From NCBI GenBank assembly GCA_964016885.1, contig OZ024741.1, forward strand, positions 369,272,001 through 369,336,000: a stretch of 64,000 nt of DNA, in the 5' to 3' direction. The stretch comes from Eledone cirrhosa. Lineage: Eukaryota. The translations under genes and the position numbers were made by a program. This document shows, in pieces, positions 2,224 to 64,000 of this stretch. Under the pieces are notes generated by a model. The model was not told the origin of the DNA. It ran no database searches and saw only the letters and a program-made list of their open reading frames with translations. Position 1 is the first letter of the stretch, and the number at the start of each line of letters is the position of its first letter.

Positions 2224-2514
2224 TGTAGTGTTTTGGAACAGTTTAAAATCCACTCAGCGAGACAACAACCGTTTAGCAACTTCACAAGGAAGAAGACCTT
2301 TATTACAACAAAATACACCAATTTATACAGGTGTTAAAATGCACGTGATGATTGGTTGAGTTCAAAAACAGACAAAAGGGGAGTCAGGTAATGCTTAACG
2401 TTAAGACAAGGGAATGTATGAAAAATGATTAGTCATGCACACGTGATACAAACAGGTGTAGAGGGAAAGTAGAATAATGTATAAAATGTTGAATCAGAAC
2501 GAAGAACAATCACA
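2224..2514 (-). repeat. 3' LTR of the Gypsy element (291 bp)
   Basis: TGTAGTGTTTTGG...GAACAATCACA; about 96% identical to 6413-6713. On the minus strand TATAAA at 2322-2327 and AATAAA at 2299-2304. Confidence 0.95.
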
Positions 2515-2531
2515 TCTTCCGCTCACTTTTT
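2515..2531 (-). promoter_or_regulatory. Polypurine tract of the Gypsy element
   Basis: Minus strand AAAAAGTGAGCGGAAGA immediately precedes TGTGA of the 3' LTR. Confidence 0.8.
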
Positions 2532-2544
2532 AGGCTTGTCAGCA

Positions 2545-3570
2545 GTGAATAAATTTCGAGCGTTGCATTTGCGTCCATCTTCAAGTTCAAATGTTGCTTG
2601 ACCAACTTTTTTTACGATCTGAGTGGCTTTGAAAAACGCTGCTCCCCTTTCTTTGATGAGAGAAATTTTGTTCGAACATAGTCGGCAACCTTCCTTGTTG
2701 CTATTGCGACGCGGTAATTATCTTGATATTGACGAATTTTCATTTCATAATCACGCGATACTGCAGCTGTCGGAACTGTTGAATTGAGCTTTGTTCTCAC
2801 CGGCCTGCCAAGAAACAGCTCTGCTGGTGTCCTCCCGTTGCTCCGTGCACGGTCTGACGCAAAGTCGTAGAAGCACTGAGAACGGCATCAGCCCACGGCT
2901 TACCATCTATCTGTGCAGTTTTGATTTTGTCTTTGATGGAGCGATTGAATCTTTCTACCAGCCCATTCGCCTGTGGATTGTAAGGCACGGTTCATGAATG
3001 CCTGATAGAATGCTCTTGCAGAAACTGTTTAAACAGATGGCTCCGAAATTGTGGTCCGTTGTCAGTGACCAAATCCTCTGGGCAACCGTAACGAGAAAAC
3101 AACCCTCGTAGGCAGGAAATAATAGTCGAAGTTAGAGGCTCTTTGCAAAGGAGAGTTTCATGGAAACGGCTGTAATAACAGATGACGATCACAATATACC
3201 GCTGATTTAAAGGTGCTGTAGAAAATGACCCCATAACGTCCATTGACAGCTTTGCCCACGGCCGAAGTGGATATTCAACAGGTTTAACGGGAGCTGGGTA
3301 GGCTTGGCTGATTTATCGGCAGAGCAACATGTCGAGAAAGAGCGTACGTGTCTTTTAGCTTTCGATGCCATGCTGGGCCTCCAGTATTGCGATCTCAGTT
3401 GCTGCTTAGTTCGACCTATTACCGGATGACCCTCGTGAGCTAGCGATAAGACTCGTGATCGAAGAAAAGTGGGAATAACGAGCAGGGAAGCACACCACAA
3501 GCAACCTTGGATGCAGGAAAGTTCTTCTCGTAAGTTGTAGAACGACCGTGCATTCTGGCCATCCCACAAC
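2545..3570 (-). pseudogene. pol: Retrotransposon integrase, frameshifted
   Basis: Fragments LAHEGHP...LRSQYWRPSM (zinc-binding region), DVMGSF...YYSRF, PEDLVTDNGPQFRS and PYNPQANGLVERFNRSIK, spread over four ORFs. Confidence 0.92.
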
Positions 3571-4377
3571 TTACGAGAAGAATGCACGGTCGAGGTGTTT
3601 TCGAGCAGACCAACCATCTTTCAAATATGATAAGACCGTCTTAAGGACCGGATCATTTGTGGTTGCAGTTGAAATCTCTTGAAGAGTCATTGTCCATTCT
3701 TGAGAGTTTTCGATGGCAGCTATGATTTCATCTTCGTCATTTGAACCATCTGTCGAACCAAGCTCTGGGAGCCGAGAAAGTGCGTCAGCTACTTCATTGC
3801 TTGACCCTCGGATGTACTCTATAATGAAATTGTAGTTGAGCAGCCGGGCATACCAACGTGCAATTCTCATTGGATGATGACCCTTGCCAACCTTGAGCAG
3901 CAGAGCTGTTAGCGCAGAATGGTCAGTACGCAAAGTGAATTTTCGACCGAACAAGTAAAGATGCCACTTTTCACAGGCCCAAACGCATGTTAGAGCTTCT
4001 TTTTCGCCTACGGAGTAGCCGTTTTCAGCCGTTGAAAGAACCCTCGAAGCATATGCAATTACTCTTTCGACCTTGTTCTGGACTTGCGCAAGAACTGCCC
4101 CTAAGCCAACGCCGGAAGCATCTGTGTAGACAATGGTGTCACAATTTATATCAAATATAGAAAGAACTGGTGCTGAGACTAACATATTCTTAACTGCTTG
4201 AAAACTTTCGTCTTTCTCACTTGTCCATTCAAAGGTCGTATCTTTCTTTGTGAGGCGACGCATTGGTTCTGCGATGGAAGCAAAATTGGGCAAAAATCGA
4301 AGGTAGTAAGAATAAAGACCCAAAAATTGACGAACTTGTTGTGCCTTTTGTGAAATCGGTGCATTCCGAATAGACAT
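3571..4377 (-). pseudogene. pol: RT connection and RNase H domain of Pol
   Basis: VRQFLGL.SYY.RFLPNFA, YTDASGVGLGAVLAQ, IAYASRVLS, EKEAL, FTLRTDHSAL, NEVADALSR. Confidence 0.95.
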
Positions 4378-5142
4378 TGTGTTCTCTTTGCTTGGTTTAA
4401 CTCCATTGGCTGAGATGATGCGGCCTAGGAACGGTATTTCGGATGAGTTTAGTACACATTTATCTAAATTTATTCGAAGATTTAATGATTCAAGTCAAGT
4501 AAGAACCTTAAGTGTTGAGTTGTGAGTTAATTTATTGCTTCCAAAAACACAAATGTCATCCATGTAAACTATGGTGCCGTTGATATTTTGAAGCGCATGA
4601 GAAATGAATTTCTGCCACGCTGCCGGTGCTGAGCTCAAACCCATGGGAAGAACTTTGTATTGGAAGAGGCCCACTGGTGTAAGAAATGCCGTAAGACGCT
4701 TTGATTCATCGGTCAGCTCGAGGTGGAAATATGCTTTAGTTATATCGAGGACTGAGAAACACTTTGCCTCTGCCAGCTTAACTAAGTTTATCAAATGACG
4801 GTATCACAAATTTATTGACGATTATTTGCTTGTTTAGTTGCCGCAGATCACAACATATGCGCATTCGATCATCTTTCGACCGTCTTTTTCCATCACTGCT
4901 ACCATTGGATGCACCCATTCGCTGTGATCTATTTCTTCAATTAGATCAGCCTCTACCATTTCGGACAATGCCTGTTTAACAGCATCCACCTTAGCCAATG
5001 CAATTGGACGTGGTTGAGATATTGCAACTGGCTTCGCATCAGGTTTAAACTGAATAAGGTGTTGAGCGTTTGGTATACGGCCAATACCTGGACTGAACAG
5101 CTGTGGAAATTGTTTTGAAATTGTCGACAGTCTATTGAGCAA
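4378..5142 (-). pseudogene. pol: Reverse transcriptase core, interrupted
   Basis: SEWVHPMVAV, FSVLDITKAYFHLEL, TAFLTPVGLFQYKVLPMGLSSAP, VYMDDICVFG; stops and frameshifts between the pieces. Confidence 0.95.
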
Positions 5143-5603
5143 ATTGTGTTATCGAGCCATGAAGTTAAATGAAGATGAATTATTGCATTTCTACCCAGCA
5201 GTGGTTTGACATTTTCTGGACCGATGTAGACATGAATATTTGAGGGAGAAGCACCTTCAACATCTAGTCCGCAAACGATGAACCCCTTGATCTGTACGCG
5301 TTGACCGGAATAATTTGAAAACTTGTGCTTAGTTGAAACAATTGATAAAGAATTGAAGTGGGTGCGATAAAAACCAAACGGAATAATCGTTACCGCAGAT
5401 GCTGTACCAACCTCCATTTTGATATTCGCTTGAGCGTCTTTACATGTAATTTTAACTTGTCGGAAATCAGGAGGAGGAAATTTTGGCTCCCTGATGACAT
5501 GTTTTCCATTTTTGTTTGCATCATGGTGATTCTCAATGGAAAATATTTGAACTTCTGCTAAGCCTTCTTCGATGTCGTGCTCTTCGTCACCAGTTGTATC
5601 CAT
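5143..5603 (-). pseudogene. Retropepsin-type aspartic protease, catalytic motif decayed
   Basis: KMEVGTASAVTII at the D[TS]G position (Asp absent) and a downstream PLLGRN motif; in frame with the gag knuckles. Confidence 0.8.
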
Positions 5604-6385
5604 GGCTTTAATTGATTGTGATAGACAAAAGCGACTGAAGTGGCCTATTTTGCCACACTTATGACATTCTAAGCCGAGTGCTGGACATTTGTTGTTATTT
5701 GCTTTAAGATTTGGGCTACCACACCGAAGACATTTGTCTTTATTGGTTTTTAAAACCTGCGAACGATTGGCTGGTTCGCGTGATACTCTATTGACTGCAA
5801 GGGAACTAACTGCGCCCGGCTTCTTCAGTGATTTGACTTGCTGTTTGACTATTTCTTTACAGCGAACGATGTTGCATGCTTTTTCCTCCAGGTCAGTTTT
5901 TTAGAGTCTTCTGAAAGAAGGGTCTCCTGAACGCGATCATCACCCAAGCCTGGTATCAATTGCTGAATAAGCATAGCGTCTTTGACTGTCGACCTAGTAA
6001 GCAGCTCATATTCGTAACTTTTTACATTATTATTCAACCGCGCAATAAAGACATCAACAGACTCACCGTCTTTTTGATACGTGAGAGTGGACCTCTGCCG
6101 GGCGTAGAAAACATTCTTTCTCGGTCTCCAGAGTTGGTCCAACAGTTTGATGGCTGCATTATAAATCTTGAAGTCGTGTGAGTCGTACTGTTGTTTCCCA
6201 GGCTCACCGAGATAGGTGCGAAGTAAATTTAGTTTAGCTTCATAATCCCATTGAATTTGGGGTTTGTAAGTGCGTGATAATGAGAAATGTGTTTCGAGGT
6301 CCTTCTTCCAGCATTGTCAATCCTCCGCTGATGGACGTGTAGAGTCATCGTTCCAGAAGAAAGTTAATGGAAACGGCAGGTTCAT
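5604..6385 (-). pseudogene. gag: gag, interrupted, with two zinc knuckles
   Basis: ATG at 6385 just after the PBS (MNLPFPLTFFW...), early TGA, then QKDGESVDVFIARL and CLRCGSPNLKANNNKCPALGLECHKCGKIGHFSRFC at ~5625-5735. Confidence 0.88.
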
Positions 6386-6396
6386 TTCGTTTGAAA

Positions 6397-6409
6397 AATC
6401 ACGACGCCA
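6397..6409 (-). promoter_or_regulatory. Primer-binding site of the Gypsy element
   Basis: Minus strand TGGCGTCGTGATT, 3 nt after the 5' LTR end; cognate tRNA not assigned. Confidence 0.75.
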
Positions 6410-6412
6410 AAA

Positions 6413-6713
6413 TGTATTGTTTTGGAACCGTTTAAAATCCACTCAGCGAGATAACGGTTTAGCAACTTCACAAGAAAGAAGACCTGTATTACAACAAAAC
6501 ACACCAATTTATACAGGTGTTAAAATGGGTATGACTCATGCACGTGATGATTGGTTGAGTACAAAAACAGACAAAAGGGGAGTCAGGTAATGCTTAACGT
6601 TAAGACAAGGGAATGTATGAAAAATGATTAGTCATGCACACGTGATACAAACAGGTGTAGAGGAAAAGTAGAATAATGTATAAAATGTTGAATCAGAACA
6701 AAGAACAGTCACA
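6413..6713 (-). repeat. 5' LTR of the Gypsy element (301 bp)
   Basis: TGTATTGTTTTGG...GAACAGTCACA; direct repeat of 2224-2514 with about 11 substitutions and 13-bp and 3-bp indels. Confidence 0.95.
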
Positions 6714-7350: not shown

Positions 7351-10300
7351 TGTAACATAATAGGACTGGGGTCTCTATCACCCCAGTAAACTCCTATGAG
7401 ACACAACCTTGTAGGAGACCAGCTAAACCTACATAGGTGTGAGATGTAACAACATGATAGGACTCGGAACCTTGTTTGATTACAAATACTGTGTGGAAAA
7501 ATTGCTCTTTGCCCACTTATTCCTGAGAGGGTCGTGGGGGTGAGTCCTCAAACAATCCTTCCAACAGGTCTTGTCAGAAGCAGGTCTCCCACTGATTCAG
7601 CATATCTCCAAGCGAGACCATCCATGTTCATGGATGTTATCCAACCATCTTGCTCGGAGTCTAACTCTGGGCCTCCTGCCAGTTGGTTTTGCATGTAAAA
7701 TCTGTCCAGTGATTCTTTCCTGAGACATTCTAACCACATGTCTGTAGTATCAGAGCTGTGATCTCTCAATTCAGAGATTCTTTCGTGAGCCATTCTAACC
7801 ACATGGCTATAGTATCAGAGCTGTGATCTCCCAATTCAGAGATTCTTTCGTGAGCCATTGTAACCACATGTCTATAGTATCAGAGCTGTGATCTCTCAAT
7901 TCAGAGATTCTTTCAGGATCCATTCTAACCACATGGCTATAGTATCAGAGCTGTGATCTCTTAATTCAGAGATTCTTTACTTAGACATTCTAACCCCATG
8001 TCCATTGTATCAGAGCTGTGATTTCTCAATCCAGTGATTCTTTCCAGAGGCATTCTAACCACATGTCATAACATCAGAGCTGTGATCTCTCAATTCTTCA
8101 GAGATTCTTTCCTGAGACATTCTACTTACATGTCCATAGTATTGGAGCTGTGATCACTCAATTCAGTGATTCTTTCCTGAGACATTCTAACCACATGTCT
8201 GTAGTTTCAGAGCTGTGCTCTCACAATTCAGAGATTCTTTCCTGAGACATTCTAATTACATGTCCATAGTATCAGAGCTGTGATTTCTCAATTCAGAGAT
8301 TCTTTCCTGAGACATTTGAACTACATGTCCATGGAGCTGTGATCTCTCAATTCAGAGATTCTTTCCTGAGCCATTCTAACCACATATCCATAGTATCAGA
8401 GCTGAGATCTCTCAATTCAGTGATTCTTTCCTGAGATATTGTAACCACGTAATAATATCAGAGCTGTGATCTCTCAATTCAGAGATTCTTTCATGAGACA
8501 TTCTAACCACATGTCTGTAGTTTCAGAGCTGTGATCTCACAATTCAGAGATTCTTTCCTGAGACATTCTAACTCCATGTCCATAGTATCAGAGCTGTGAT
8601 TTCTCAATTCAGAGATTATTGCCTGAGACATTCTAACCACATATCCATAGTATCAGAGCTGTGATCTCTCAATTCAGAGATTCTTTCCTGAGACGTTCTA
8701 ACGACATGTCTGTAGTTTCAGAGCTGTGATCTCTCAATTCAGAGATTCTTTCCTGCGACATTGGAACCACATGTCATAATATCAGAGCTGTGATCTCTCA
8801 ATTCAGAGATTCTTTGCTGAGACATTCTAACCACATGTCTGTAGTATCAGAGCTGTGATCTCTCAATTCAAAGATTCTTTCCTGAGCCATTCTAACCACA
8901 TATCCATAGTATCAGAGCTGTGATCTCTCAATTCAGAGATTCTTTCCTGAGACATTCTAACCCAATATCCATAGTATCAGAGCTGTGTTCTCTCAATCCA
9001 GTGATTCTTTACCGAGCCATTCTAACCATATATCCATAGTATCAGAGCTGTGATCTCTCAATTCAGAGATTCTTTCCTGAGAAATTCTAATTACATATCC
9101 ATAGTATCAGAACTGTGATTTCTCAATTCAGAGATTCTTTCCTGAGACATTCTAACCACATGTCTGTAGTTTCAGAGCTGTGATCTCACAATTCAGAGAT
9201 TCTTTCCTGAGACATTCTAATTACATATCCATAGTATCAGAACTGTGATTTCTCAATTCAGAGATTCTTTCCTGAGACATTTGAACTACATGACCATGGA
9301 GCTGTGATCTCTCAATTCAGAGATTCTTTCCTGAGACATTCTAACCACATATCCATAGTATCAGAGCTGTGATCTCTCAATTCAATGATTCTTTCCTGAG
9401 ACATTGTAACCACACGTCATAATATCAGAGCTGTGATCTCTCAATTCAGAGATTCTTTCCTGAGACATTCTAACCACATGTCTGTAGTTTCAGAGCTGTG
9501 ATCTCACAATTCAGAGATTCTTTCCTGAGACATTTGAACTACATGTCCATAGTATCAGAGCTGTGATCTCTCAATTCAGAGATTCTTTCCTGAGACATTC
9601 TAACTCCATGTCCATAGTATCAGAGCTGTGATTTCTCAATTCAGAGATTATTGCCTTAGACATTCTAACCACATATCCATAGTATCAGAGCTGAGATCTC
9701 TCAATTCAGTGATTCTTTCCTGAGATATTGTAACCACATGTCATAATATCAGAGCTGTGATCTCTCAATTCAGAGATTCTTTCATGAGACATTCTAACCA
9801 CATGTCTGTAGTTTCAGAGCTGTGATCTCACAATTCAGAGATTCTTTCCTGAGACATTCTAACTCCATGTCCATAGTATCAGAGCTGTGATTTCTCAATT
9901 CAGAGATTATTGTCTGAGACATTCTAACCACATATCCATAGTATCAGAGCTGTGATCTCTCAATTCAGAGATTCTTTCCTGAGCCATTCTAACCACATAT
10001 CCATAGTATCAGAGCTGTGATCTCTCAATTCAATGATTCTTTCCTGAGACATTGTAACCACACGTCATAATATCCGAGCTGTGATCTCTCAATTCAGAGA
10101 TTCTTTCCTGAGACATTCTAACCACATGTCTGTAGTTTCAGAGCTGTGATCTCAAAATTCAGAGATTCTTTCCTGAGACATTTGAACTACATGTCCATAG
10201 TATCAGAGCTGTGATCTCTCAATTCAGAGATTCTTTCCTGAGACATTCTAACTCCATGTCCATAGTATCAGAGCTGTGATTTCTCAATTCAGAGATTATT

Positions 10301-19490: not shown

Positions 19491-20221
19491 GTATCAGAGC
19501 TGTGATCTCTATATTTAGAGATTCTTTCCTGAGATATTCTACTTACATGTCCATACTATTAGAGCTGTGATCTCGGGGTCACCACTTTAGCAGTATTAGT
19601 TGTAGAGTAGTCGCCACTTTAGTAGGGTGGTAGAATCAGTGGTCGTTAGTTGCCAGTGTGGTAAGTGATAGTATCCTCGTTGGATTATCTTGTTGCCATA
19701 GACGTGAGGGAAGGTCCCTCGATCTATTTACCATCTATTTACAATATTCCTTTCGTCAGGTCGGCAATTCCAGCAGCATGGATTAAAGATGTCATTGAGA
19801 CACGAGTAACATAACAACGACTTCAACCGCAGTAATTAGAGATGAAATGTTTGTTTATTTATATGGTTGAAGTTACAGATAAAAAGTGGTTACAAAATGG
19901 AATGTGCCATTGCGCCGTTAAGCTGGCGAGGCTAGTGGTGCAGTATCTCACTGTTACATTATGCGTGTTGCTGGCTCGAAGTTTCTGGTACAAGCTAGAG
20001 ATTCTTCAAATCTTCGCGGGGAATTTCTTCCTCAGGGTGCGTAGGGATACATCCTCTTCTACTGGCGCTGATTGGCTGAACTGAGCCAAATCACGCACAG
20101 AGAATGTATGTGAGCCCGCGGAATGTAGGTCACTACAGTATCAGAGCTGTGATCTCTATATTTAGAGATTCTTTCCTGAGATATTCTACTTACATGTCCA
20201 TACTATTAGAGCTGTGATCTC
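19491..20221. repeat. 84-bp direct duplication flanking the solo LTR (19491-19574 and 20138-20221)
   Basis: The variant-specific string GTATCAGAGCTGTGATCTCTATATTTAG...CTACTTACATGTCCATACTATTAGAGCTGTGATCTC occurs on both sides; single copy at the empty site 54461-54544. Confidence 0.85.
19575..20137 (-). mobile_element. Truncated solo LTR inside the satellite, derived from the element at 42479-45166
   Basis: Near-identical to 42479-43040 and 44605-45166, with the same left and right satellite junctions; begins TGTAGTGACC on the minus strand. Confidence 0.93.
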
Positions 20222-32200: not shown

Positions 32201-35200
32201 ACATATCCATAGTATCAGAGCTGTGATCTCTCAATTCAATGATTCTTTCCTGAGACATTGTAACCACACGTCATAATATCAGAGCTGTGATCTCTCAATT
32301 CAGAGATTCTTTCCTGAGACATTCTAACCACATGTCTGTAGTTTCAGAGCTGTTATCTCTCAATTCAAAGATTCTTTCCTGAGCCATTCTAACAACATAT
32401 CCATAGTATCAGAGCTGTGATTTCTCAATTCAGAGATTATTGCCTTGGACATTCTAACCACATATCCATAGTATCAGAGCTGTGATCTCTCAATTCAGAG
32501 ATTCTTTCCTGAGACGTTCTAACCACATGTCTGTAGTTTCAGAGCTGTGATCTCTCAATTCAGAGATTTTTTCCTGCGACATTGTAACCACATGTCATAA
32601 TATCAGAGCTGTGATCTCTCAATTCAGAGATTCTTTGCTGAGACATTCTAACCACATATCATAAATTATCAGAGCTGTGATCTCTCAATTCAGAGATTCT
32701 TTCCTGAGCCATTCTAACCACATATCCATAGTATCAGAGCTGTGATCTCTCAATTCAGAGATTCTTTCCTGAGACATTGTAACCACATGTCATAATACCA
32801 GAGCTAGGAACCCTCAATTCAGAGATTCTTTCCTTAGACATTCTAACGCCATGTCCATTGTATCAGAGCTGTGATCTCTCAATCCAGTGATTCTTTCCTG
32901 AGGCATTCTAACCAGATGTCATAACATCAGAGCTGTGATATCTCAATTCTTCAGAGATTCTTTCCTGAGACATTCTACTTACATGCCCAGAGTATCGGAG
33001 CTGTGATCACTCAATTCAGTGATTCTTTCCTGAGACATTCTAACCACATGTCTGTAGTTTCAGAGCTGTGATCTCACAATTCAGAGATTCTTTCCTGAGA
33101 CATTCTAATTACATGTCCATAGTATCAGAGCTATGATTTCTCAATTCAGAGATTCTTTCCTGAGACATTTGAACTACATGTCCATGGAGCTGTGATCTCT
33201 CAATTCAGAGATTCTTCCCTGAGACATTCTAACCACATGTCATAATATCAGAGCTGTGATCTCTATATTTAGAGATTCTTTCCTGAGATATTCTAACTAC
33301 ATGTCACAGTATCAGAGCTGTGATCTCTATATTTAGAGATTCTTTCCTGAGACATTCTAACCTCATATCCATAGTATCAGAGCTGCGTTCTCTCAATCCA
33401 GTGATTCTTTCCCGAGCCATTCTAACCACATATCCATAGTATCAGGGCTGTGATCTCTCAATTCAGACATTCTTTCCTGAGACATTCTAACCACATGTCT
33501 GTAGTATCAGAGCTGTGAACCCTCAATTCAGAGATTCTTTCCTGAAATATTCTAACCACATGTCTGTAGTATCAGAGCTGTGATCTCACAATTCAGAGAT
33601 TCTTTCCTGAGATATTCTAACAACATGTCTGTAGTATCAGAGCTGTGATCTCTAAATTCAGAGATTCTTTCCTGAGCCATTCTAACCACATATCCATAGT
33701 ATCAGAGCTGTGATCTCTCAATTCAGAGATTCTTTCCTGAGACATTCTAACCACATGTCATAATATCAGAGCTGTGATCTCTCAATTCATAGATTCTTTA
33801 CTGATACATTCTAACCACATGTCTGTAGTTTCAGAACTGTGATCTCACAATTCAGAGAATCTTTTCTGCGACATTCTAACCACATCTCTGTAGTTTCAGA
33901 GCCGTGATCTCACAATTCAGAGATTCTTTCCTGAGACATTTGAACTTATTGTCCATAGTATCAGAGCTGTGATCTCACAATTCAGAGATTCTTTCCTGAG
34001 ACATTCTAACTCCATGTCCATAGTATCAGAGCTGTGATTTCTCAATTCAGAGATTAATGCCTGAGACGTTCTAACCACATATCCATAGTATCAGAGCTGT
34101 GATCTCTCAATTCAGAGATTCTTTCCTGAGACGTTCTAACGACATGTCTGTAGTTTCAGAGCTGTGATCTCTCAATTCAGAGATTCTTTCCTGCGACATT
34201 GTAACCACATGTCATAATATCAGAGCTGTGATCTCTCAATTCAGAGATTCTTTCCTGAGACATTCTAACCACATGGCTGTAGTATCAGAGCTGTGATCTC
34301 TCAATTCAAAGATTCTTTCCTGAGCCATTCTAACCACATATCCATAGTATCAGAGCTGTGATCTCTCAATTCAGAGATTCTTTCCTGAGACATTCTAACC
34401 ACATGTCTGTAGTTTCAGAGCTGTCATCTCACAATTCAGAGATTCTTTCCTGAGACATTCTAATTACATATCCATAGTATCAGAACTGTGATTTCTCAAT
34501 CCAGAGATTCTTTCCTGAGACATTCTAACCACATGTCTGTAGTTTCAGAGCTGTGATCTCACAATTCAGAGATTCTTTCCTGAGACATTCTAATTACATA
34601 TCCATAGTATCAGAACTGTGATTTCTCAATTCAGAGATTCTTTCCTGAGACATTTGAACTACATGACCATGGAGCTGTGATCTCTCAATTCAGAGATTCT
34701 TTCCTGAGCCATTCTAACCACATATCCATAGTATCAGAGCTGTGATCTCTCAATTCAATGATTCTTTCCTGAGACATTGTAACCACACGTCATAATATCA
34801 GAGCTGTGATCTCTCAATTCAGAGATTCTTTCCTGAGACATTCTAACCATATGTCTGTAGTTTCAGAGCTGTGATCTCTCAATTCAGAGATTCTTTCCTG
34901 AGACATTCTAACTCCATGTCCATAGTATCAGAGCTGTGATTTCTCAATTCAGAGATTATTGCCTTGGACATTCTAACCACATATCCATAGTATCAGAGCT
35001 GTGATCTCTAAATTCAGAGATTCTTTCCTGAGACGTTCTAACCACATGTCTGTAGTTTCAGAGCTGTGATCTCTCAATTCAGAGATTTTTTCCTGCGACA
35101 TTGTAACCACATGTCATAATATCAGAGCTGTGATCTCTCAATTCAGAGATTCTTTGCTGAGACATTCTAACCACATATCATAAATTATCTGAGCTGTGAT

Positions 35201-38200
35201 CTCTCAATTCAGAGATTCTTTCCTGAGACATTCTAATCCCATATCCATAGTATCAGAGCTGTGTTCTCTCAATCCAGTGATTCTTTCCCGAGCCATTCTA
35301 ACCACATATCCATAGTATCAGAGCTGTGATCTCTCAATTCAGAGATTCTTTCCTGAGCCATTCTAACCACATATCCATAGTATCAGAGCTGTGATCTCTC
35401 AATTCAGAGATTCTTTCCTGAGACATTGTAACCACATGTCATAATACCAGAGCTAGGAACCCTCAATTCAGAGATTCTTTCCTTAGACATTCTAACGCCA
35501 TGTCCATTGTATCAGAGCTGTGATCTCTCAATCCAGTGATTCTTTCCTGAGGCATTCTAACCAGATGTCATAACATCAGAGCTGTGATCTCTCAATTCTT
35601 CAGAGATTCTTTCCTGAGACATTCTACTTACATGCCCATAGTATCGGAGCTGTGATCACTCAATTCAGTGATTCTTTCCTGAGACATTCTAACCACATGT
35701 CTGTAGTTTCAGAGCTGTGATCTCACAATTCAGAGATTCTTTCCTGAGACATTCTAATTACATGTCCATAGTATCAGAGCTATGATTTCTCAATTCAGAG
35801 ATTCTTTCCTGAGACATTTGAACTACATGTCCATGGAGCCGTGATCTCTCAATTCAGAGATTCTTCCCTGAGACATTCTAACCACATGTCATAATATCAG
35901 AGCTGTGATCTGTCAATTCAGAGATTATTGCCTGAGACATTCTAACCCCATGTCCATAGAATCACAGCTGTGATCTCTCAATCTAGTGATTCTTTCCTGA
36001 GACATTCTAACTCCATGTCCAAAGTATTGGAGCTGTGATCTCTCAATTCAGAGATTCTTTCCTGAGACATTCTAACCACATGTCTGTAGTTTCAGAGCTG
36101 TCATCTCACAATTCAGAGATTCTTTCCTGAGACATTCTAATTACATATCCATAGTATCAGAACTGTGATTTCTCAATCCAGAGATTCTTTCCTGAGACAT
36201 TCTAACCACATGTCTGTAGTTTCAGAGCTGTGATCTCACAATTCAGAGATTCTTTCCTGAGACATTCTAATTACATATCCATAGTATCAGAACTGTGATT
36301 TCTCAATTCAGAGATTCTTTCCTGAGACATTTGAACTACATGACCATGGAGCTGTGATCTCTCAATTCAGAGATTCTTTCCTGAGCCATTCTAACCACAT
36401 ATCCATAGTATCAGAGCTGTGATCTCTCAATTCAATGATTCTTTCCTGAGACATTGTAACCACACGTCATAATATCAGAGCTGTGATCTCTCAATTCAGA
36501 GATTCTTTCCTGAGACATTCTAACCATATGTCTGTAGTTTCAGAGCTGTGATCTCTCAATTCAGAGATTCTTTCCTGAGACATTCTAACTCCATGTCCAT
36601 AGTATCAGAGCTGTGATTTCTCAATTCAGAGATTATTGCCTTGGACATTCTAACCACATATCCATAGTATCAGAGCTGTGATCTCTAAATTCAGAGATTC
36701 TTTCCTGAGACGTTCTAACCACATGTCTGTAGTTTCAGAGCTGTGATCTCTCAATTCAGAGATTTTTTCCTGCGACATTGTAACCACATGTCATAATATC
36801 AGAGCTGTGATCTCTCAATTCAGAGATTCTTTGCTGAGACATTCTAACCACATATCATAAATTATCTGAGCTGTGATCTCTCAATTCAGAGATTCTTTCC
36901 TGAGACATTCTAATCCCATATCCATAGTATCAGAGCTGTGTTCTCTCAATCCAGTGATTCTTTCCCGAGCCATTCTAACCACATATCCATAGTATCAGAG
37001 CTGTGATCTCTCAATTCAGAGATTCTTTCCTGAGCCATTCTAACCACATATCCATAGTATCAGAGCTGTGATCTCTCAATTCAGAGATTCTTTCCTGAGA
37101 CATTGTAACCACATGTCATAATACCAGAGCTAGGAACCCTCAATTCAGAGATTCTTTCCTTAGACATTCTAACGCCATGTCCATTGTATCAGAGCTGTGA
37201 TCTCTCAATCCAGTGATTCTTTCCTGAGGCATTCTAACCAGATGTCATAACATCAGAGCTGTGATCTCTCAATTCTTCAGAGATTCTTTCCTGAGACATT
37301 CTACTTACATGCCCATAGTATCGGAGCTGTGATCACTCAATTCAGTGATTCTTTCCTGAGACATTCTAACCACATGTCTGTAGTTTCAGAGCTGTGATCT
37401 CACAATTCAGAGATTCTTTCCTGAGACATTCTAATTACATGTCCATAGTATCAGAGCTATGATTTCTCAATTCAGAGATTCTTTCCTGAGACATTTGAAC
37501 TACATGTCCATGGAGCCGTGATCTCTCAATTCAGAGATTCTTCCCTGAGACATTCTAACCACATGTCATAATATCAGAGCTGTGATCTGTCAATTCAGAG
37601 ATTATTGCCTGAGACATTCTAACCCCATGTCCATAGAATCACAGCTGTGATCTCTCAATCTAGTGATTCTTTCCTGAGACATTCTAACTCCATGTCCAAA
37701 GTATTGGAGCTGTGATCTCTCAGTTCAGAGATTCTTTCCTGAGACATTCTAACTACATGCCATAGTATCAGAGCTGTGATCTCTATATTTAGAGATTCTT
37801 TCCTGAGATATTCTAACGACATGTCATAGTATCAGAGCAGTGATCTCTATATTTAGAGATTCTTTCCTGAGATATTCTAACCACATGTCATAGTATCAAA
37901 GCTGTGATCTCTCAATTCAGAGATTCTTTTCTGAGACATTCTAACCACATGTCATAATATCAGAGCTGTGATCTCTCAATTCAGAGATTCTTTCCTGAGA
38001 CATTCTAACTACATGTCTGTAGTTTCAGAGCTGTGATCTCACAATTCAGAGATTCTTTCCTGAGACATTCTAACTCCATGTCCATAGTATCAGAGCTGTG
38101 ATTTCTCAATTCAGAGATTATTGCCTGAGACATTCTAACCACATATCCATAGTATCAGAGCTGTGATCTCTCAATTCAGAGATTCTTTCCTGAGACGTTC

Positions 38201-41200: not shown

Positions 41201-42478
41201 TTCTTCCCTGAGATTTTCTAACCACATGTCTAGTATCAGAGCTCTGATCTCTAAATTCAGAGATTCTTTCCTGAGCCATTCTAACCACATATCCATAGTA
41301 TCAGAGCTGTGATCTCTCAATTCAAAGATTCTTTCCTGAGCCATTCTAACCACATATCCATATTATCAGAGCTCTGATCTCTCAATTCAGACATTCTTTC
41401 CTGAGACTTTCTAACACCATATCCATATTATCAGAGCTGTGTTCTCTCAATCCAGTGATTCTTTCCCAAGCCATTCTAACCACATATCCATAGTATCAGA
41501 GCTGTGATCTCTCAATTCAAAGATTCTTTCCTGAGCCATTCTAACCACATATCCATAGTATCAGAGCTGTGATCTCTCAATTCAGAGATTCTTTCCTGAG
41601 ACATTGTAACCACATGTCATAATACCAGAGCTGGGAATCCTCAATTCAGAGATTCTTTCCTGAAATATTCTAACCACATGTCTGTAGTATCAGAGCTGTG
41701 ATCTCACAATTCAGAGATTCTTTCCTGGGACATTGTAATTACATGTCCATAGTATCGGAGCTGTGATATCTCAATTCAGAGATTCTTTCCTGAGACATTT
41801 GAACTACATGTCCATAGTATCAGAGCTGTGATCTCTCAATTCAGAGATTCGTTCCTTAGACATTCTAACCCCATGTCCATTGTATCAGAGCTGTGATCTC
41901 TCAATCCAGTGACTCTTTCCGGAGGCATTCTAACCACATGTCATAACATCAGAGCTGTGATCTCTCAATTCTTCAGAGATTCTTTCCTGAGACATTCTAA
42001 CCACATGTCTATAGTTCAGAGCTGTGATCTCACAATTCAGAGATTCTTTCCTGAGACATTCTAATTACATGTCCATAGTATCAGAGCTATGATTTCTCAA
42101 TTCAGAGATTCTTTCCTGAGACATTTGAACTACATGTCCATGGAGATGTGATCTCTCAATTCAGAGATTCTTCCCTGAGACATTCTAACCACATGTCATA
42201 ATATCAGAGCTGTGATCTGTCAATTCAGAGATTATTGCCTGAGACATTCTAACTCCATGTCCATAGAATCACGGCTGTGATCTCTCAATCTAGTGATTCT
42301 TTCCTGAGACATTCTAACTCCATGTCCAAAATATTGGAGCTGTGATCTCTCAGTTCAGAGATTCTTTCCCGAGACATTCTAACTACATGTCATAGTATCA
42401 GAGCTGTGATCTCTATATTTAGAGATTCTTTCCTGAGATATTCTACTTACATGTCCATACTATTAGAGCTGTGATCTC

Positions 42479-43040
42479 GGGGTCACCACTTTAGCAGTAT
42501 TAGTTGTAGAGTAGTCGCCACTTTAGTAGGGTGGTAGAATCAGTGGTCGTTAGTTGCCAGTGTGGTAAGTGATAGTATCCTCGTTGGATTATCTTGTTGA
42601 CATAGACGTGAGGGAAGGTCCCTCGATCTATTTACCATCTATTCACAATATTCCTTTCCTCAGGTCGCCAATTCCAGCAGCATGGATTAAAGATGTTATT
42701 GAGACACGAGTAACATAACAACGACTTCAACCGCAGTAATTAGAGATGAAATGTTTGTTTATTTATATGGTTGAAGTTACAGATACAAAGAGGTTACAAA
42801 AATGGAATGTGCCATTGGCGTTAAGCCGGCGAGGCTAGTGGTGCAATATCTCACTGTTACATTATGCGTGTTGCTGGCTCGAAGTTTCTGGTACAAGCTA
42901 GTGATTCTTCAAATCTTCGCGGGGAATTTCTTCCTCAGGGTGCGTAGGGATACATCCTCTTCTACTGGCGCTGATTGGCTGAACTGAGCCAAATCACGCA
43001 CAGAGAATGTATGTGAGCCCGCGGAATGTAGGTCACTACA
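42479..43040 (-). repeat. 3' LTR, missing ~410 bp of its U5 end
   Basis: Starts TGTAGTGACC (minus strand) after the PPT; homology to the 5' LTR stops at GGTCACCA (42481-42488). Confidence 0.88.
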
Positions 43041-43052
43041 TCACCTCCAACC
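43041..43052 (-). promoter_or_regulatory. Polypurine tract
   Basis: Minus strand GGTTGGAGGTGA directly before TGTAGT of the 3' LTR. Confidence 0.7.
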
Positions 43053-44177
43053 AGATTTTCAGCCGAAAATCGATAACGAAGAAACCAAGGACCCACATAT
43101 TATTAAATCAGCAAGAACAAATGCTGAAAGAGCACATCAGTGAAAAAATAATTGAGCAGAAGGTTGCATGCAAGAACAAAAAATGAGGCGCTACGGGCCG
43201 TGTTGAGCCGCTGTGTCAAATGACCAGTTGTTTTGTTGTTTATACGTGACCGCCAAAGGTCTAACAAAAAACGGATAAAGTCTGACATGGGCGAGGTTGC
43301 TGTTCTTGCATTAAATGTTAATGGTAAGCGTTGTACCAGTAGCTGTGAACGAAGCTATTATGGTAGTTTATCAGTGCTGGCCACCAGATGTATTGTCGAA
43401 TGTGCTGTGGAGCCAGGAAAAAATGGCTGGTTGCTTTGTAAAGAACAAAAGGCAAGTTTAATCTGTAGATGGGTTGCAGTGTAAATTCCATAATTCGGGC
43501 GAATCCACAGAAGTGGCCGAAATGCTAACAAGTCTAGTTCAATTTGTTGCTTTCCCAGCGAGTCGGGCAAAAACAACAAGACGGATGGCCGTCATGGACG
43601 ATCAGTGTGCAACGAGATGCGAAGCTGTTTGAGTTCAGCTGCAATGTATTCTCGTGTTGCGGTGCCTGTTTGAATCCAGTGGATTAAGCTCTGTGAGCTG
43701 CTAGCATGTGACAGCATCTCAACCAGGTGAAAAGGGACTCGCAGAATATTACGTTTGAAGAACATATACCAAGAACAACATGTTGGTGTGTGATAAAAAA
43801 AATGTGTGCATATGCAGGCATGTAAAACAGCAAAGAATGTGAATGAACAAAAACCATGAGCAAGCAAATAGCAAAAGAGCACAAAACAAGTAAATGCATT
43901 CTACAAAGAAATATGTGAATGTAACAAACTGATAATTCAAAGTCAATCTAGGGGAGCAGAGAAATTGCTCAATAAGTTCAAAGTTTTTCAAAGTCAAATA
44001 GTTCACACATCACCAGTGTACAGACACTAGTTCTGTCCGAAAACTGAAAAAGAATTTTGTTAATGCCATTAGGGGTTAGATGTATGGTGTTTTTGTGAGA
44101 TTTCGTGGCCATTTTCCCGTCCCGCCACACGGTTGTGTTGCTTATTGTTAAAGCAAAGTCAAAGAATCTTCTGTAGA

Positions 44178-44190
44178 GTAGGAGTCACCA
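44178..44190 (-). promoter_or_regulatory. Primer-binding site, tRNA-Trp-like
   Basis: Minus strand TGGTGACTCCTAC versus TGGTGACCCCGAC, the complement of the metazoan tRNA-Trp 3' end (11/13 match). Confidence 0.75.
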
Positions 44191-44192
44191 AA

Positions 44193-45166
44193 TATGGCAG
44201 TCGCGTCAGACGCCATAATGGTGAGAAAACTACTGTCCCAATTTCTCGCGTCCCTGTGGTAACGAGACAGAAGGTATGGTAGTTGCGTTGGTAAAGTTAC
44301 AAGCCGTTTCGAAATTTCCGATGTGTGGTGGTTGGCGTTGGTAAGGTTATGAAGCTGCCACTCACTGTTCCCTGTATTGGTCAGTGGTTAAACAATGCTG
44401 TCGCTGCTGCTGTCATTGTTGTTGTCAAGCGTAGCCATGACATGTCGGTAGCAATCTTGAAATTTTTTCGTGGCGAAACAGTTTTTGAAATACTGCTAAT
44501 TTTTCAAAAATCTTAAGAGGAATATTCTGGATTTTTGCAAGTTGCGACGTGGCAATAAAAGTTAAACTGAATGAATAAGAAGGGCTGCGTGATATTCTTA
44601 CGTTGGTCACCACTTTAGCAGTATTGGTTATAGATGTTATCGTCACTTTAGCAGGGTGGTAGAATCAGTGGTCGTTAGTTGCCAGTGTGGTAAGTGATAG
44701 TATCCTCGTTGGATTATCTTGTTGCCATAGACGTGAGAGAAGGTCCCTCGATCTATTTACCATCTATTTACAATATTCCTTTCGTCAGGTCGGCAATTCC
44801 AGCAGCATGGATTAAAGATGTCATTGAGACACGAGTAACATAACAACGACTTCAACCGCAGTAATTAGAGATGAAATGTTTGTTTATTTATATGGTTGAA
44901 GTTACAGATAAAAAGTGGTTACAAAATGGAATGTGCCATTGCGCCGTTAAGCTGGCGAGGCTAGTGGTGCAATATCTCACTGTTACATTATGCGTGTTGC
45001 TGGCTCGAAGTTTCTGGTACAAGCTAGTGATTCTTCAAATCTTCGCGGGGAATTTCTTCCTCAGGGTGCGTAGGGATACATCCTCTTCTACTGGCGCTGA
45101 TTGGCTGAACTGAGCCAAATCACGCACAGAGAATGTATGTGAGCCCGCGGAATGTAGGTCACTACA
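44193..45166 (-). repeat. Complete 5' LTR (~970 bp)
   Basis: From TGTAGTGACC at 45166 to just before the PBS (inner end uncertain by about 2 nt); AATAAA on the minus strand at ~44883-44888. Confidence 0.8.
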
Positions 45167-48100
45167 GTATCAGAGCTGTGATCTCTATATTTAGAGATTC
45201 TTTCCTGAGATATTCTACTTACATGTCCATACTATTAGAGCTGTGATCTCTCAATTCAGAGATTCTTTCCTGAGACATTCTAACCCCATATCCATAGTAT
45301 CAAATCTGTGTTCTCTCAATCCAGTGATTCTTTCCCGAGCCATTCTAACCACATATCCATAGTATCAGAGCTGTGATCTCTCAATTCAGACATTCTTTCC
45401 TGAGAGATTCTAACCACATGTCATAATACCAGAGCTGTGAACCCTCAATTCAGAGATTCTTTCCTGAAATATTCTAACCACAGTTTCAGAGCTGTGATCT
45501 CACAATTCAGAGATTCTTTCCTGAGATATTCTAACATCATGTCTGTAGTATCAGAGCTGTGATCTCTCAATTCAGAGATTCTTTCCTGAGATATTCTAAC
45601 AACATGTCTGTATTATCAGAGCTGTGATCTCTCAATTCAGAGATTCTTTGTTGAGATATTCTAACAACATGTCTGTAGTATCAGAGCTGTGATCTCTCAA
45701 TTCAGAGATTCTTTCCTGAGACATTTTAACCACGTCATAATACCAGTGCTTTGATCTCTCAATTCAGAGATTCTTTGTTGAGATTTTCTAACCACATGTC
45801 TGTAGTATCAGAGCTGTGATCTCTCAATTCAAAGATTCTTTCCTGAGCCATTCTAACCACATATCATAAATTATCAGAGCTGTGATCTCTCAATTCAGAG
45901 ATTCTTTCCTGAGACATTCTAACCCCATATCCATAGTATCAGAGCTGTGTTCTCTCAATCCAGTGATTATTTCCCGAGTCATTCTAACCACATGTCATAA
46001 TACCAGAGCTAGGAACCCTCAATTCAGAGATTCTTTCCTTAGACATTCTAACCCCATGTCCATTGTATCAGAGCTGTGATCTCTCAATCCAGTGATTCTT
46101 TCCTGAGGCATTCTAACCACATGTCATAACATCAGAGCTGTGATCTCTCAATTCTTCAGAGATTCTTTCCTGAGACATTCTACTTACATGTCCATAGTAT
46201 TGGAGCTGTGATCACTCAATTCAGTGATTCTTTCCTGAGACAATCTAACCACATGTCTGTAGTTTCAGAGCTGTGATCTCACAATTGAGAGATTCGTTCC
46301 TGAGACATTCTAATTACATATCCATAGTATCAGAACTGTGATTTCTCAATTCAGAGATTCTTTCCTGAGACATTTGAACTACATGTCCATGGAGCTGTGA
46401 TCTCTCAATTCAGAGTTTCTTTCCTGAGCCATTCTAACCACATATCCATAGTATCAGAGCTGTGATCTCTCAATTCAGTGATTCTTTCCTGAGACATTGT
46501 AACCACACGTCATAATATCAGAGCTGTGATCTCTCAATTCAGAGATTCTTTCCTGAGCCATTCTAACCACATATCCATAGTATCAGAGCTGTGATCTCTC
46601 AATTCAGTGATTCTTTCCTGAGACATTGTAACCACACGTCATAATATCAGAGCTGTGATCTCTCAATTCAGAGATTCTTTCCTGAGACATTCTAACTCCA
46701 TGTCCATAGTATCAGAGCTGTGATTTCTCAATTCAGAGATTATTGCCTTAGACATTCTAACCACATATCCATAGTATCAGAGCTGTGATCTCTCAATTCA
46801 GAGATTCTTTCCTGAGATGTTCTAACCACATGTCTGTAGTTTCAGAGCTGTGATCTCTCAATTCAGAGAATCTTTCCTGCGACATTGTAACCACATGTCA
46901 TAATATCAGAGCTGTGATCTCTCAATTCAGAGATTCATTGCTGAGACATTCTAAACCCATGTCCATAGTATCGGAGCTGTGATCTCTCAATTCAGAGATT
47001 CTTTCCTGAGCCATTCTAACCACATGTCATAATATCAGAGCTGTGATCTCTCAATTCAGAGATTCTTTCCTGAGACATTCTAACCACATATCCATAGTAT
47101 CAGAGCTGTGATCTCTCAATTCAGAGATTCTTTCCTGAGCCATTCTAACCACATATCCATAGTATCAGAGCTGTGATCTCCCAATTCAGAGATTCTTTCC
47201 TGAGACATTGTAACCACATGTCATAATACCAGAGCTAGGAACCCTCAATTCAGAGATTCTTTCCTTAGACATTCTAACCCCATGTCCATTGTATCAGAGC
47301 TGTGATCTCTTAATCCAGTGATTCTTTCCTGAGGCATTCTAACCACATGTCATAACATCAGAGCTGTGATCTCTCAATTCTTCAGAGATTCTTTCCTGAG
47401 ACATTCTACTTACATGCCCATAGTATCGGAGCTGTGATCACTCAAATCAGTGATTCTTTCCTGAGACATTCTAACCAAATGTCTGTAGTTTCAGAGCTGT
47501 GATCTCACAATTCAGAGATTCTTTCCTGAGACATTCTAATTACATGTCCATAGTATCAGAGCTATGATTTCTCAATTCAGAGATTCTTTCCTGAGACATT
47601 TGAACTACATGTCCATGGAGCTGTGATCTCTCAATTCAGAGATTCTTCCCTGAGACATTCTAATCACATGTCATAATATCAGAGCTGTGATCTGTCAATT
47701 CAGAGATTATTGCCTGAGACATTCTAATCCCATGTCCATAGAATCACAGCTGTGATCTCTCAATCTAGTGATTCTTTCCTGAGACATTCTAAATCCATGT
47801 CCAAAGTATTGGAGCTGTGATCTCTCAGTTCAGAGATTCTTTCCTGAGACATTCTCACTACATGTCATAATATCAGAGCTGTGATCTCTATATTTAGAGA
47901 TTCTTTCCTGAGATATTCTAACTACATGTCACAGTATCAGAGCTGTGATCTCTATATTTAGAGATTCTTTCCTGAGATATTCTAACCACATGTCATAGTA
48001 TCAAAGCTGTGATCTCTCAATTCAGAGATTCTTTCCTGAGACATTCTAACCCCATATCCATAGTATCAGAGCTGCGTTCTCTCAATCCAGTGATTCTTTC

Positions 48101-54100: not shown

Positions 54101-57100
54101 ATTCAGAGATTCTTTCCTGAGACATTCTAATTACATGTCCATAGTATCAGAGCTATGATTTCTCAATTCAGAGATTCTTTCCTGAGACATTTGAACTACA
54201 TGTCCATGGAGCTGTGATCTCTCAATTCAGAGATTCTTCGGTGAGACATTCTAACCACATGTCATAATATCAGAGCTGTGATCTGTCAATTCAAAGATTA
54301 TTGCCAGAGACATTCTAACCCCATGTCCATAGAATCACGGCTGTGATCTCTCAATCTAGTGATTCTTTCCTGAGACGTTCTAACTCCATGTCGAAAGTAT
54401 TGGAGCTGTGATCTCTCAGTTCAGAGATTCTTTCCTGAGACATTCTAACTACATGTCATAGTATCAGAGCTGTGATCTCTATATTTAGAGATTCTTTCCT
54501 GAGATATTCTACTTACATGTCCATACTATTGGAGCTGTGATCTCTCAATTCAGAGATTCTTTCCTGAGACATTCTAACCCCATATCCATAGTATCAGAGC
54601 TGTGTTCTCTCAATCCAGTGATTCTTTCCCGAGCCATTCTAATCACATATCCATAGAATCAGAGCTGTGATCTCTCAATTCAGACATTCTTTCCTGAGAG
54701 ATTCTAACCACATGTCATAATACCAGAGCTGTGAACCCTCAATTCAGAGATTCTTTCCTGAAATATTCTAACCACATGTCTGTAGTTTCAGAGCTGTGAT
54801 CTCACAATTCAGAGATTCTTTCCTGAGATATTCTAACAACATGTCTGTAGTATCACAGCTGTGATCTCTCAATTCAGAGATTATTTGCTGAGATATTCTA
54901 ACAACATGACTGTAGTATCAGAGCTGTGATGTCTCAATTCAGAGATTCTTCCCTGAGACATTCTAACCACGTCATAATACCAGTGCTTTGATCTCTCAAT
55001 TCAGAGTTTCTTTCCTGAGCATTCTAACCACATATCCATAGTATCAGAGCTGTGATCTCTCAATTCAGAGATTCTTTCCTGAGACATTGTAACCACATGT
55101 CATAATACCAGAGCCGTGATCTCTCAATTCATAGATTCTTTCCTCAGACATTCTAACCACATGTGGTAGTATCAGAGCTGTGATCTCTCAATTCAGAGAT
55201 TCGTTCCTGAGACATTGTAACCACATGTCATAATATCAGAGCTGTGATCTCTCAATTCATTGATTCTTTCCTGAGAAATTCTAACCACATGTCATAATAT
55301 CAGAGCTGTGATCTCTCAATTCATAGATTCTTTCCTGAGACATTCTAACCACATGTCATAATATCAGAGCTGTGATCTCTCAATTCATAGATTCTTTCCT
55401 GAGACATTCTAACCACATGTCATAATACCAGTGCTTTGATCTCTCAACTCAGAGATTCTTTCCTGAGAAATTTTAACCCCATGTCCATAGTATCAGAGCT
55501 GTGTTCTCTCAATCCAGTTATTCTTTCCTGAGACATTCTAACCATATATCCATAGTATCAGAGCTGTGAACCCTCAATCCAGTGATTCTTTCCTGAGACA
55601 TTCTACTTACATGTCCATAGTATCGGAGCTGTGAACCCTCAATTCAGAGATTCTTTCCTGAGACATTTGAACTACATGTCCATAGTATCAGAGCTGTACC
55701 TCTCAATTCAGAGATTCTTTCCTTAGACATTCTAACCCCATGTCCATTGTATCAGAGCTGTGATCTCTCAATCCAGTGATTCTTTCCTGAGGCATTCTAA
55801 CCACATGTCATAACATCAGAGCTGTGATCTCTCAATTCTTCAGAGATTCGTTCCTGAGACATTCTACTTACATGTCCATAGTGTCGGAGCTGTGATCACT
55901 CAATTCAGTGATTCTTCCCTGAGACATTCTAACCACGTGTCTGTAGTTTCAAAGCTATCATCTCACAATTCAGAGCTTCTTTCCTGAGACATTCTAATTA
56001 CATGTCCATAGTATCAGAGCTGTGATTTCTCAATTCAGAGATTCTTTCCTGAGACATTGTAACCACATGTCATAATATCAGATCTGTGATCTCTCAATTC
56101 AGAGATTCTTTCTTGAGACATTGTAACCACATGTCATAATATCAGATCTGTGATCTCTCAATTCAGAGATTCTTTCCTGAGACATTCTAACCACATGTCC
56201 ATAGTATCAGAGCTGTGATCTCTAAATTCAGAGATTCTTTCCTGAGCCATTCTAACCACATATCCATAGTATCAGAGCTGTGATCTCTCAATCCAGTGAT
56301 TCTTTCCTGAAACATTGTAAACACATGTCATAATACCAGAGCTGTGATCTCTCAATTCAGAGATTCTTTCCTGAGATATTCTAACCACATGTCTGTAGTA
56401 TCACAGCTGTGATCTCTCAATTCAGAGATTATTGCCTGAGACATGCTAACCCCATGTCCATAGTATCGGAGCTGTGATCTCGCAATTCAGAGATTCTTTC
56501 CTGAGCCATTCTAACCACATATCCATAGTATCAGAGCTGTGATTTCTCAATTCAGAGATTCTTTCGTGAGACATTTGAACTACATGTCCATAGAGGTGTG
56601 ATCTGTCAATTCAGAGATTCTTTCCTGAGACATTTGAACTACATGTGCATAGAGCCGTGATCTCTCAATTCAGAGATTCCTCCCTGAGATTTTCTAACCA
56701 CATGTCTGTAGTATCAGAGCTGTGATCTCTAAATTCAGAGATTCTTTCCTGAGCCATTCTAACCACATGTCTGTAGTATCAGAGCTGTGATCTCTCAATT
56801 CAGAGATTCTTTCCTGACACAATCTAACCACGTCATAATACCAGTGCTTTGATCTATCAATTCAGAGATTCTTTCCTGAGACATTCTAACCACATATCTG
56901 TAGTATCAGAGCTGTGATCTCTCAATTCAGAGATTCTTTCCTGAGACATTCTAACCACATGTCTGTAGTATCAGAGCTGTGATCTCTCAATTCAGAGATT
57001 CTTTCCTGAGACATTCTAACCACATGTCTGTAGTATCAGAGCTGTGATCTCTCAATTCAGAGATTCTTTCCTGAGACAGTCTAACCACATGTCTGTAGTA

Positions 57101-63100: not shown

Positions 63101-64000
63101 AATTCAGAGATTCTTTCATGAGATATTCTAACCACATGTCATAATATCAGAGCTGTGAACTCTCAATTCAGAGATTCTTTCATGAGATATTCTAACCACA
63201 TGTCATAATATCAGAGCTGTGATCTCACAATTCAGAGATTCTTTCCTGAGACATTTTAACCACATGTCTGTTGTTTCAGAGCTGTGATCTCACAATTCAT
63301 ATATTCCTTCCTGAGACATTTTAACCACATGTCATAATATTAGAGCTGTGATCTGTCAATTCAGAGATTATTGCCTGAGACATTCTAACCACATGTCCAT
63401 AGTATCAGAGCTGTAATCTCTCAATTCAGAGATTCTTTCCTGAGACATTGTAAACACATGTCATAATATCAGAGCTGTGATCTCTCAATTCAGAGATTCT
63501 TTCCTGAGACATTCTAACCACATGTCTGTAGTATCAGACCTGTTATCTCTCAATTCAGAGATTCTTTCCTGAGACATTGTGACCACATGTCATAATATCA
63601 GAGCTGTGATCTCTCATTTCAGAGATTCTTTCCTGAGACATTCTAACCACATGTCTGTAGTATCAGACCTGTTATCTCTCAATTCAGAGATTCTTTCCTG
63701 AGACATTGTGACCACATGTCATAATATCAGAGCTGTGATCTCTCATTTCAGAGATTCTTTCCTGAGACATTCTAACTACATGTCCATAGTATCAGTGCTG
63801 TGATCTCTCAATTCAGAGATTCTTTCATGAGACATTCCAGCCACCTGTCATAGTATCAGATTTATGATCTCTCAATTAAGAGAAGTATCAGTTCTACCTG
63901 GAGTGACTCTCTGATCTCTAAGCTACACTCTATCGAGTAACGTTACTTCACAGACCCTTCGGAGGAATCCCATTGCGGCCACTTATTTTCTTTCGGTCTA

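Follow-up and report, generated by a model that had tools for sequence, protein, structure and literature searches.

An LTR retrotransposon insertion with an 84-bp target duplication and a tRNA-Trp-matching tail in a satellite array of Eledone cirrhosa

Introduction

How does a long terminal repeat (LTR) retrotransposon come to stand between two copies of 84 bp of host satellite DNA, when the usual criterion for such elements is a target duplication of 4-6 bp? The question is raised by a minus-strand insertion in a 64,000-nt stretch of Eledone cirrhosa DNA (assembly GCA_964016885.1, contig OZ024741.1, positions 369,272,001 to 369,336,000), which is called the window here and whose first base is position 1. 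An earlier note on this DNA had suggested that a complementary DNA (cDNA) with one defective end was joined by integrase at its good end and by host repair at the other. We find one flush junction and one junction at which a complete LTR end is followed by a short tail matching the complement of the tRNA-Trp 3' end, and we argue that one-ended integration, in a form different from that first proposed, offers the best-supported answer.

An exact 84-bp duplication and its empty counterpart

The longest exact match between the two flanks of the insert is 85 nt (42394-42478 and 45166-45250). Because the first of these matching bases is also the terminal A of the LTR, we count the duplication as 84 nt, with the left copy at 42395-42478 and the right copy at 45167-45250. 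The duplicated sequence is a variant of the host satellite, and at 84/65 = 1.3 it amounts to the approximately 1.3 monomers that the earlier note had estimated as the gain of the array. In a scan of the whole window, the 85-mer is found exactly at four places (19490, 20137, 42394, and 45166), and all four exact copies of the duplication are identical; a further place, 54460, has one mismatch, while the next best match has 9. Searched as a 65-mer, the variant gives only five matches in the window at up to 6 mismatches, and an uninserted tandem is never among them. A duplication of 4-6 bp was sought at either possible left boundary and was not found.

The place with one mismatch is an empty paralogous site (54461-54544), which holds a single copy of the variant with 1 mismatch in 84 positions. 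The order of monomers on both sides is the same as at the insertion site, and the flanks of the two sites align with identities of 97.3% over 300 bp upstream and 98.3% over 300 bp downstream. These results bear out what had been claimed from the sequence alone, namely that a rare 84-bp variant stands at both ends of the insert and that the empty site has it once.

One clean junction and one extended by a tRNA-matching tail

The right junction is flush with the U3 start of the 5' LTR (44614-45166, 553 bp, minus strand), which reads TGT on the minus strand, and is of the normal integrase type. The earlier note had described this junction as a clean TG/CA end; its cleanness stands, whereas the LTR is of the form TG...AA. 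For the left junction, the note had reported the lack of an attachment (att) end. We observe that the 3' LTR (42490-43040, 551 bp, minus strand, TGT...AAA) is complete there: its end lies at 42490, exactly where one contig of a public run (X5) exits the LTR into unrelated DNA, and it has the form of CsRn1-type ends, so that no att site is missing. Four of the 12 public runs listed, identified here by X numbers, were compared with the element; the right junction lies outside the compared stretch, and the figures of this comparison rest on 24 of the 444 rows for loose ends and 12 of the 61 for joint letters.

What makes the left end abnormal is a set of 11 extra bases beyond the LTR (42479-42489), together with a 2-nt overlap with the host satellite. 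In the sense orientation, what comes after the 3' LTR is a 1-nt spacer (42489, minus strand), the same as at 44613, and then TGGTGACCCCGA (42477-42488, minus strand), of which 10 nt are non-satellite and the last two bases (42477-42478) also belong to the satellite copy on the left. These two shared bases confirm the microhomology that had been noted at this junction. TGGTGACCCCGA equals the first 12 nt of the complement of human tRNA-Trp as printed in bioRxiv 10.1101/400127, a human sequence that may not be that of the host. The tail also fits the primer-site consensus of the CsRn1 clade (PMC2582038). Repair would be primed from the 3' terminus of the sense strand, which is where the tail lies.

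The element's own primer-binding site (44600-44612, minus strand) has a different form. Specifically, it reads TGGTGACC then AACGT in the window, and TGGTGACC then GATGT in a contig of the run X1; each of the two has 8 nt of tRNA match, followed by 4/5 matches after a 2-nt gap relative to the tRNA. A contig of the run X4 crosses the internal site with the spacing of the window and no gap, which is a comparison of spacing and not of letters. The full 12-nt primer-site sequence is thus seen at the aberrant junction only, and the tail has two bases that are present in the tRNA and absent from the internal sites of the family (two copies by letters and one by spacing). The internal site has an 8-nt match and lacks 2 nt, so that the tail agrees more closely with the tRNA than with the element. 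The probability of matching the 2 extra nt by chance is 1/16, or 1/256 when the 2 shared nt are included, both figures being post hoc.

A second copy of the insertion as a solo LTR

The window contains a second copy of the same insertion, an arrangement that is absent from the earlier note. At 19491-20221 (minus strand), a solo LTR (19586-20137) and the same tail (19573-19584) are enclosed by the 84-bp flanks (19491-19574 and 20138-20221), and the junctions of the inserted part (19575-20137) are identical to those of the full element. The solo LTR equals the left LTR at the 7 U5-tip differences and one more site, equals the right LTR at the remaining 12 columns that differ, and has 2 private changes. 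It lies in blocks that are offset by 23-25 kb and are 99.0-100% identical. The simplest view is that the block was duplicated and the insertion then recombined to a solo form in one copy, or else that this is the other allele assembled in tandem; either origin means that the junctions have been seen twice.

Structure of the element and its family

Judged by its sequence, the element is a non-coding (non-autonomous) LTR retrotransposon of the CsRn1-like gypsy type on the minus strand. It has direct LTRs, a primer site after the 5' LTR, and a purine-rich tract directly upstream of the 3' LTR (43041-43052, minus strand) that is likely the polypurine tract. Its termini are the TGT...AAA of CsRn1, and each end matches its CsRN1 LTR end motif (PMC3601003) at 6 of 7 positions. 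The internal region (43041-44612, minus strand) is non-coding and multi-copy in public runs; its longest frame is 102 aa, and a Pfam search gave no match in any of the 10 stop-to-stop frames tested. An Rfam search of 42300-45400 gave no match at E up to 1, and no sign of a ribozyme-bearing Penelope-type repeat was seen in that interval. A tyrosine-recombinase or Penelope-type origin was dropped, since LTR, primer site, and purine tract stand in the standard order.

Part of the element occurs in 8 of the 12 public runs listed, none of which has half of it and among which there is no RNA run. The four runs compared reveal a diverse family of many dispersed copies whose LTR ends are sharp and whose flanks vary; for example, 798 reads of X10 exit the LTR at 43040 into mixed flanks. 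Additionally, the U5 tip (42490-42535 and 44614-44660) contains a short internal direct repeat and most of the clustered differences between the LTRs, and other family copies show further length variants around 42545-42550.

Mosaic divergence of the two LTRs

Between the two LTRs of the full element we count 19 difference events, all of which fall in the 341 columns of the U5 side and none in the 213 columns of the U3 side. In a uniform-placement simulation, this clustering has P = 0.0015, or 0.014 without the first 60 columns (the U5 tip), as a post hoc calculation. Among the 40 rows listed (of 409) for other family copies, each of the two U5-tip types is represented (42510 and 42513), and the U3 sides of both LTRs have in common bases that few family members carry (42899 and 42941). 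If the insertion were as old as the LTR divergence, an 85-nt duplication would stay unchanged with a probability of 0.008-0.05, though satellites homogenise. Given this low probability, the LTR differences probably predate or accompany the insertion, or the U3 side was converted later.

Proposed one-ended integration and its alternatives

For this locus, the class of explanation with the best support is integration of one end followed by repair by the host, because one end is clean, the other is abnormal with a 2-nt microhomology, the paralogous site has a single copy, and there is laboratory precedent. In that precedent, integrase inserts one end, the free 3' end primes on nearby host DNA by short homology, and recombination closes the joint, which gives large duplications (PMC5041404). 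To this extent the proposal of the earlier note holds, whereas its account of the defect as a missing att end does not, the U5 end being intact and over-long. Within this class, we think it probable that the U5 end of the cDNA kept a tRNA-templated extension, that the U3 end alone was integrated, and that host repair joined the tail 84 bp away. Plus-strand synthesis would have run into the primer tRNA, and the extension would never have been removed. Such an extended U5 end would not be processable by integrase, which would have joined the U3 end only; the 3' terminus of the tail could then have primed on nearby satellite through the 2-nt microhomology, and recombination would have closed the joint, thereby duplicating 84 bp. 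Later, the array block would have been duplicated (the alternative being a tandem assembly of two alleles), and LTR-LTR recombination would have reduced one of the copies to the solo LTR. For Ty1/Ty3, synthesis of the first plus strand is described as ending once 12 nt of the tRNA have been copied, and the tRNA is not the source of the inherited primer site (PMC5371799); a 12-nt tRNA-copy end has been found joined into a yeast insertion, clone MK44 (PMC2939329). The tail described here, and an internal site that is consistently shorter in two or three copies, would fit this mode of reverse transcription.

The mosaic of the LTRs may add a further step. In intermolecular first-strand transfer, R-U5 from one RNA becomes linked to U3 from a second RNA, although both LTRs end up identical in the published scheme (PMC6894440). 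Second-strand transfer in Ty3 goes through R-U5 on the minus strand (PMC5371799), and a transfer of this kind could, we suggest, leave two LTRs that differ in R-U5. More weakly, we infer that the cDNA may have come from two different co-packaged RNAs, which would give an identical U3 side and a different U5 side. The composite picture would be that of a Ty1/Ty3-type replication intermediate fossilised in the germ line by an animal gypsy family: a two-RNA cDNA with a 12-nt copy of tRNA-Trp failed at two-ended integration and was repaired by the host. We put this picture forward tentatively and regard it as doubtful.

Several points weigh against the tRNA-templated origin and the steps built on it. 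At the level of letters, the tRNA case rests on 2-4 bases in a C run, and slippage is possible since the 2 extra bases lengthen that run. A subfamily or an autonomous partner may carry the full 12-nt primer site, the internal sites covered being three, two of them by letters. The 12-nt stop has been described for the yeast initiator tRNA (PMC5371799). The 64-kb window holds no tRNA gene, and the tail was compared with human tRNA-Trp. We know of no matching block for tRNA-Trp. None of the 23 records listed (1834 further pieces) spans a junction. The empty paralog could itself be the product of a deletion between the 84-bp repeats, and in this one window the duplication may have been made either at insertion or by later recombination. 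As to the two-RNA step, the identity of the U3 side could just as well be due to later gene conversion; furthermore, the only TATA-like word in the LTR, at position 275, lies downstream of 5 LTR differences and, if it marked the start site, would argue against that step.

Among the alternatives, the main one retains one-ended integration and changes the template of the tail. A free or resected U5 end would have invaded the 5' LTR of another copy whose primer site has the full 12 nt; it would have copied that site together with as much as ~340 bp of the LTR and then switched to satellite at the 2-nt microhomology, so that the tail would be DNA-templated. This accounts in one step for both the tail and the LTR mosaic (19 U5-side differences and 0 on the U3 side). 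A full 12-nt site is the normal CsRn1 form (PMC2582038), which also counts against a tRNA template, and several templates are copied onto the free end in the Hughes model (PMC5041404). We nevertheless consider this route unlikely, as no full site with internal sequence is found among the rows listed, the three internal sites have the short form or its spacing, and the switch must by chance fall within the primer site. A pseudo-duplication, in which two insertions 84 bp apart in homologous array copies recombined via their LTRs and contributed the left flank with the U5 side and the rest, respectively, would yield chimeric LTRs with a common U3. Satellites undergo unequal exchange, the array has many near-identical blocks, and a related model is discussed for the long duplications of HERV-K (PMC5488345). 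However, two hits within 84 bp of a 53-kb array have a probability of ~0.003 if random, and one of the two insertions must still carry the tail. The whole-window scan finds only two family insertions in the array (19575-20137 and 42479-45166) and thus no other insertion of the family there, and we hold this course of events to be quite improbable.

The sequence of events could also be reversed, with dead-end plus-strand strong-stop DNA (LTR plus a 12-nt tRNA copy) captured as a solo and a second element recombined in later. An LTR with 12 nt is the dead-end product described for Ty1/Ty3 (PMC5371799, PMC2939329). The solo equals the left part of the left LTR plus the right part of the right LTR, as expected in either direction. 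Its chances are slim, however: the rare U3 bases (42899 and 42941) are present in both LTRs, far from the crossover zone, and would need an extra conversion, and the passage from full element to solo is established as the common direction. We give very little credence to an assembly artefact in satellite DNA. No record listed confirms the junctions, and near-identical array blocks are hard to assemble; yet the junctions are the same in two distinguishable copies (solo and full, with flanks 99-100% but not fully identical), and the tail matches a biologically meaningful sequence. Hardly credible is a last course, named in the earlier note itself, whereby the element inserted normally where the variant already stood in tandem, and the LTR end and a 4-bp duplication were later deleted. 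Monomer doubling does occur locally, a related monomer type being doubled in tandem in 12 other array units (11300-48000). The doubled monomers are not the 84-bp variant, from which they differ by at least 9 mismatches in 85, whereas the five matches of the variant lie at up to 6. Since a deletion cannot yield a complete, extended LTR end, this explanation is largely refuted.

Relation to known systems

The laboratory case closest to our preferred one-ended integration is that of human immunodeficiency virus type 1 (HIV-1) and avian sarcoma-leukosis virus (ASLV), which share with this locus one normal end, a host joint at short homology, and a duplication far longer than 4-6 bp (PMC5041404). 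The present insertion differs in being natural, inherited, and that of a non-coding gypsy element; furthermore, its bad end is extended by a primer-site copy, whereas the viral ends were truncated, mutated, or drug-blocked. Among natural insertions, HERV-K (HML-2) has eight long target duplications of 13-450 bp among 451 estimated (PMC5488345). These are likewise germ-line LTR insertions, often solo, with long near-exact duplications and an empty allele, and they share the doubt about pseudo-duplication; the possibility that an empty site is a deletion product is also raised there. In the available part of that paper no tRNA-complementary tail is reported and the cause is not pinned down, while the junction described here preserves a candidate cause.

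The dead-end strong-stop DNA of Ty1/Ty3 resembles our tail in having 12 nt of tRNA complement past the LTR end, beyond what the element's own primer site contains (PMC5371799, PMC2939329). Those products come from yeast, the initiator tRNA, and laboratory selection, in contrast to a natural case in an animal, and MK44 is a composite joined to a transformed fragment rather than a whole element with a long host duplication (PMC2939329). The CsRn1 clade has TGT...AAA/ATA ends, a 12-nt tRNA-Trp primer site, and 4-bp duplications (PMC2582038). Our element shares the TGT...AAA ends, a primer site that matches tRNA-Trp in part, and the purine tract before the 3' LTR (PMC2582038, PMC3601003). It lacks gag and pol, so that its place in the clade is putative; in addition, its internal primer site is shortened and its duplication is 84 bp and not 4.

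Long duplications, one-ended integration, and 12-nt tRNA tails therefore each have precedent, and we met with no published animal case in which the three occur together naturally. A literature search by title and abstract, with most subscription papers and supplements outside its scope, gave no natural insertion with both a tRNA tail and a long duplication. The cause of long target duplications at natural LTR insertions is unsettled (PMC5488345), and an unprocessed tRNA-matching end is a candidate. The combination of 3' LTR, primer-site tail, and long duplication forms a signature that can be searched for in genomes, and it ties what is known of one-ended integration in the laboratory and of dead-end cDNAs in yeast to insertions that are inherited. 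The locus also illustrates that a single LTR insertion can extend an array by an amount not in phase with its monomers, and that duplication of the array can then spread the insertion in full and solo forms. It is one event in repetitive DNA, with no evident host effect. Were the germ-line-fossil reading true, the primer site of the family would not be inherited from the tRNA, the divergence of LTR pairs would overstate the age of such insertions, and the same signature could explain some of the long HERV-K duplications.

The host satellite array and its surroundings

The insertion lies in a host array of 65-bp satellite monomers, arranged in repeated multi-monomer units and extending from 7707 to 63883 in the window scan. 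The 84-bp variant occurs in three array units, where it is fused into one monomer. From these three units and the 12 units with the doubled related monomer, we conclude that the repeat-unit sub-lineage which holds the insertion is a contracted one. Within the array, a 1622-bp stretch (34424-37722) is repeated at an offset of 1677 with 100% identity, which points to a very recent duplication or an assembly echo.

When translated, the monomer and the two array flanks (7480-7750 and 63800-64000, minus strand) line up as successive segments of a single degenerate protein end, which we take to be the reverse transcriptase C-terminus of RTE-type long interspersed nuclear elements (LINEs); in the Atlas it corresponds to unnamed clusters (0.95-0.96). 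The 56-kb array seems to have arisen where it stands, by expansion of a 65-bp piece from a dispersed coding element. Monomer pieces in the runs X4, X5, and X10 continue into sequences that resemble both array flanks.

A separate degenerate gypsy-type element (2224-6713, minus strand) has RNase H and zinc-knuckle hits and two LTR-like repeats, and the bases outside its ends show no matching short duplication. Upstream of it lie TA/ATGT microsatellite tracts (472-1270) and an 82-bp minisatellite in three copies (1444-1694).

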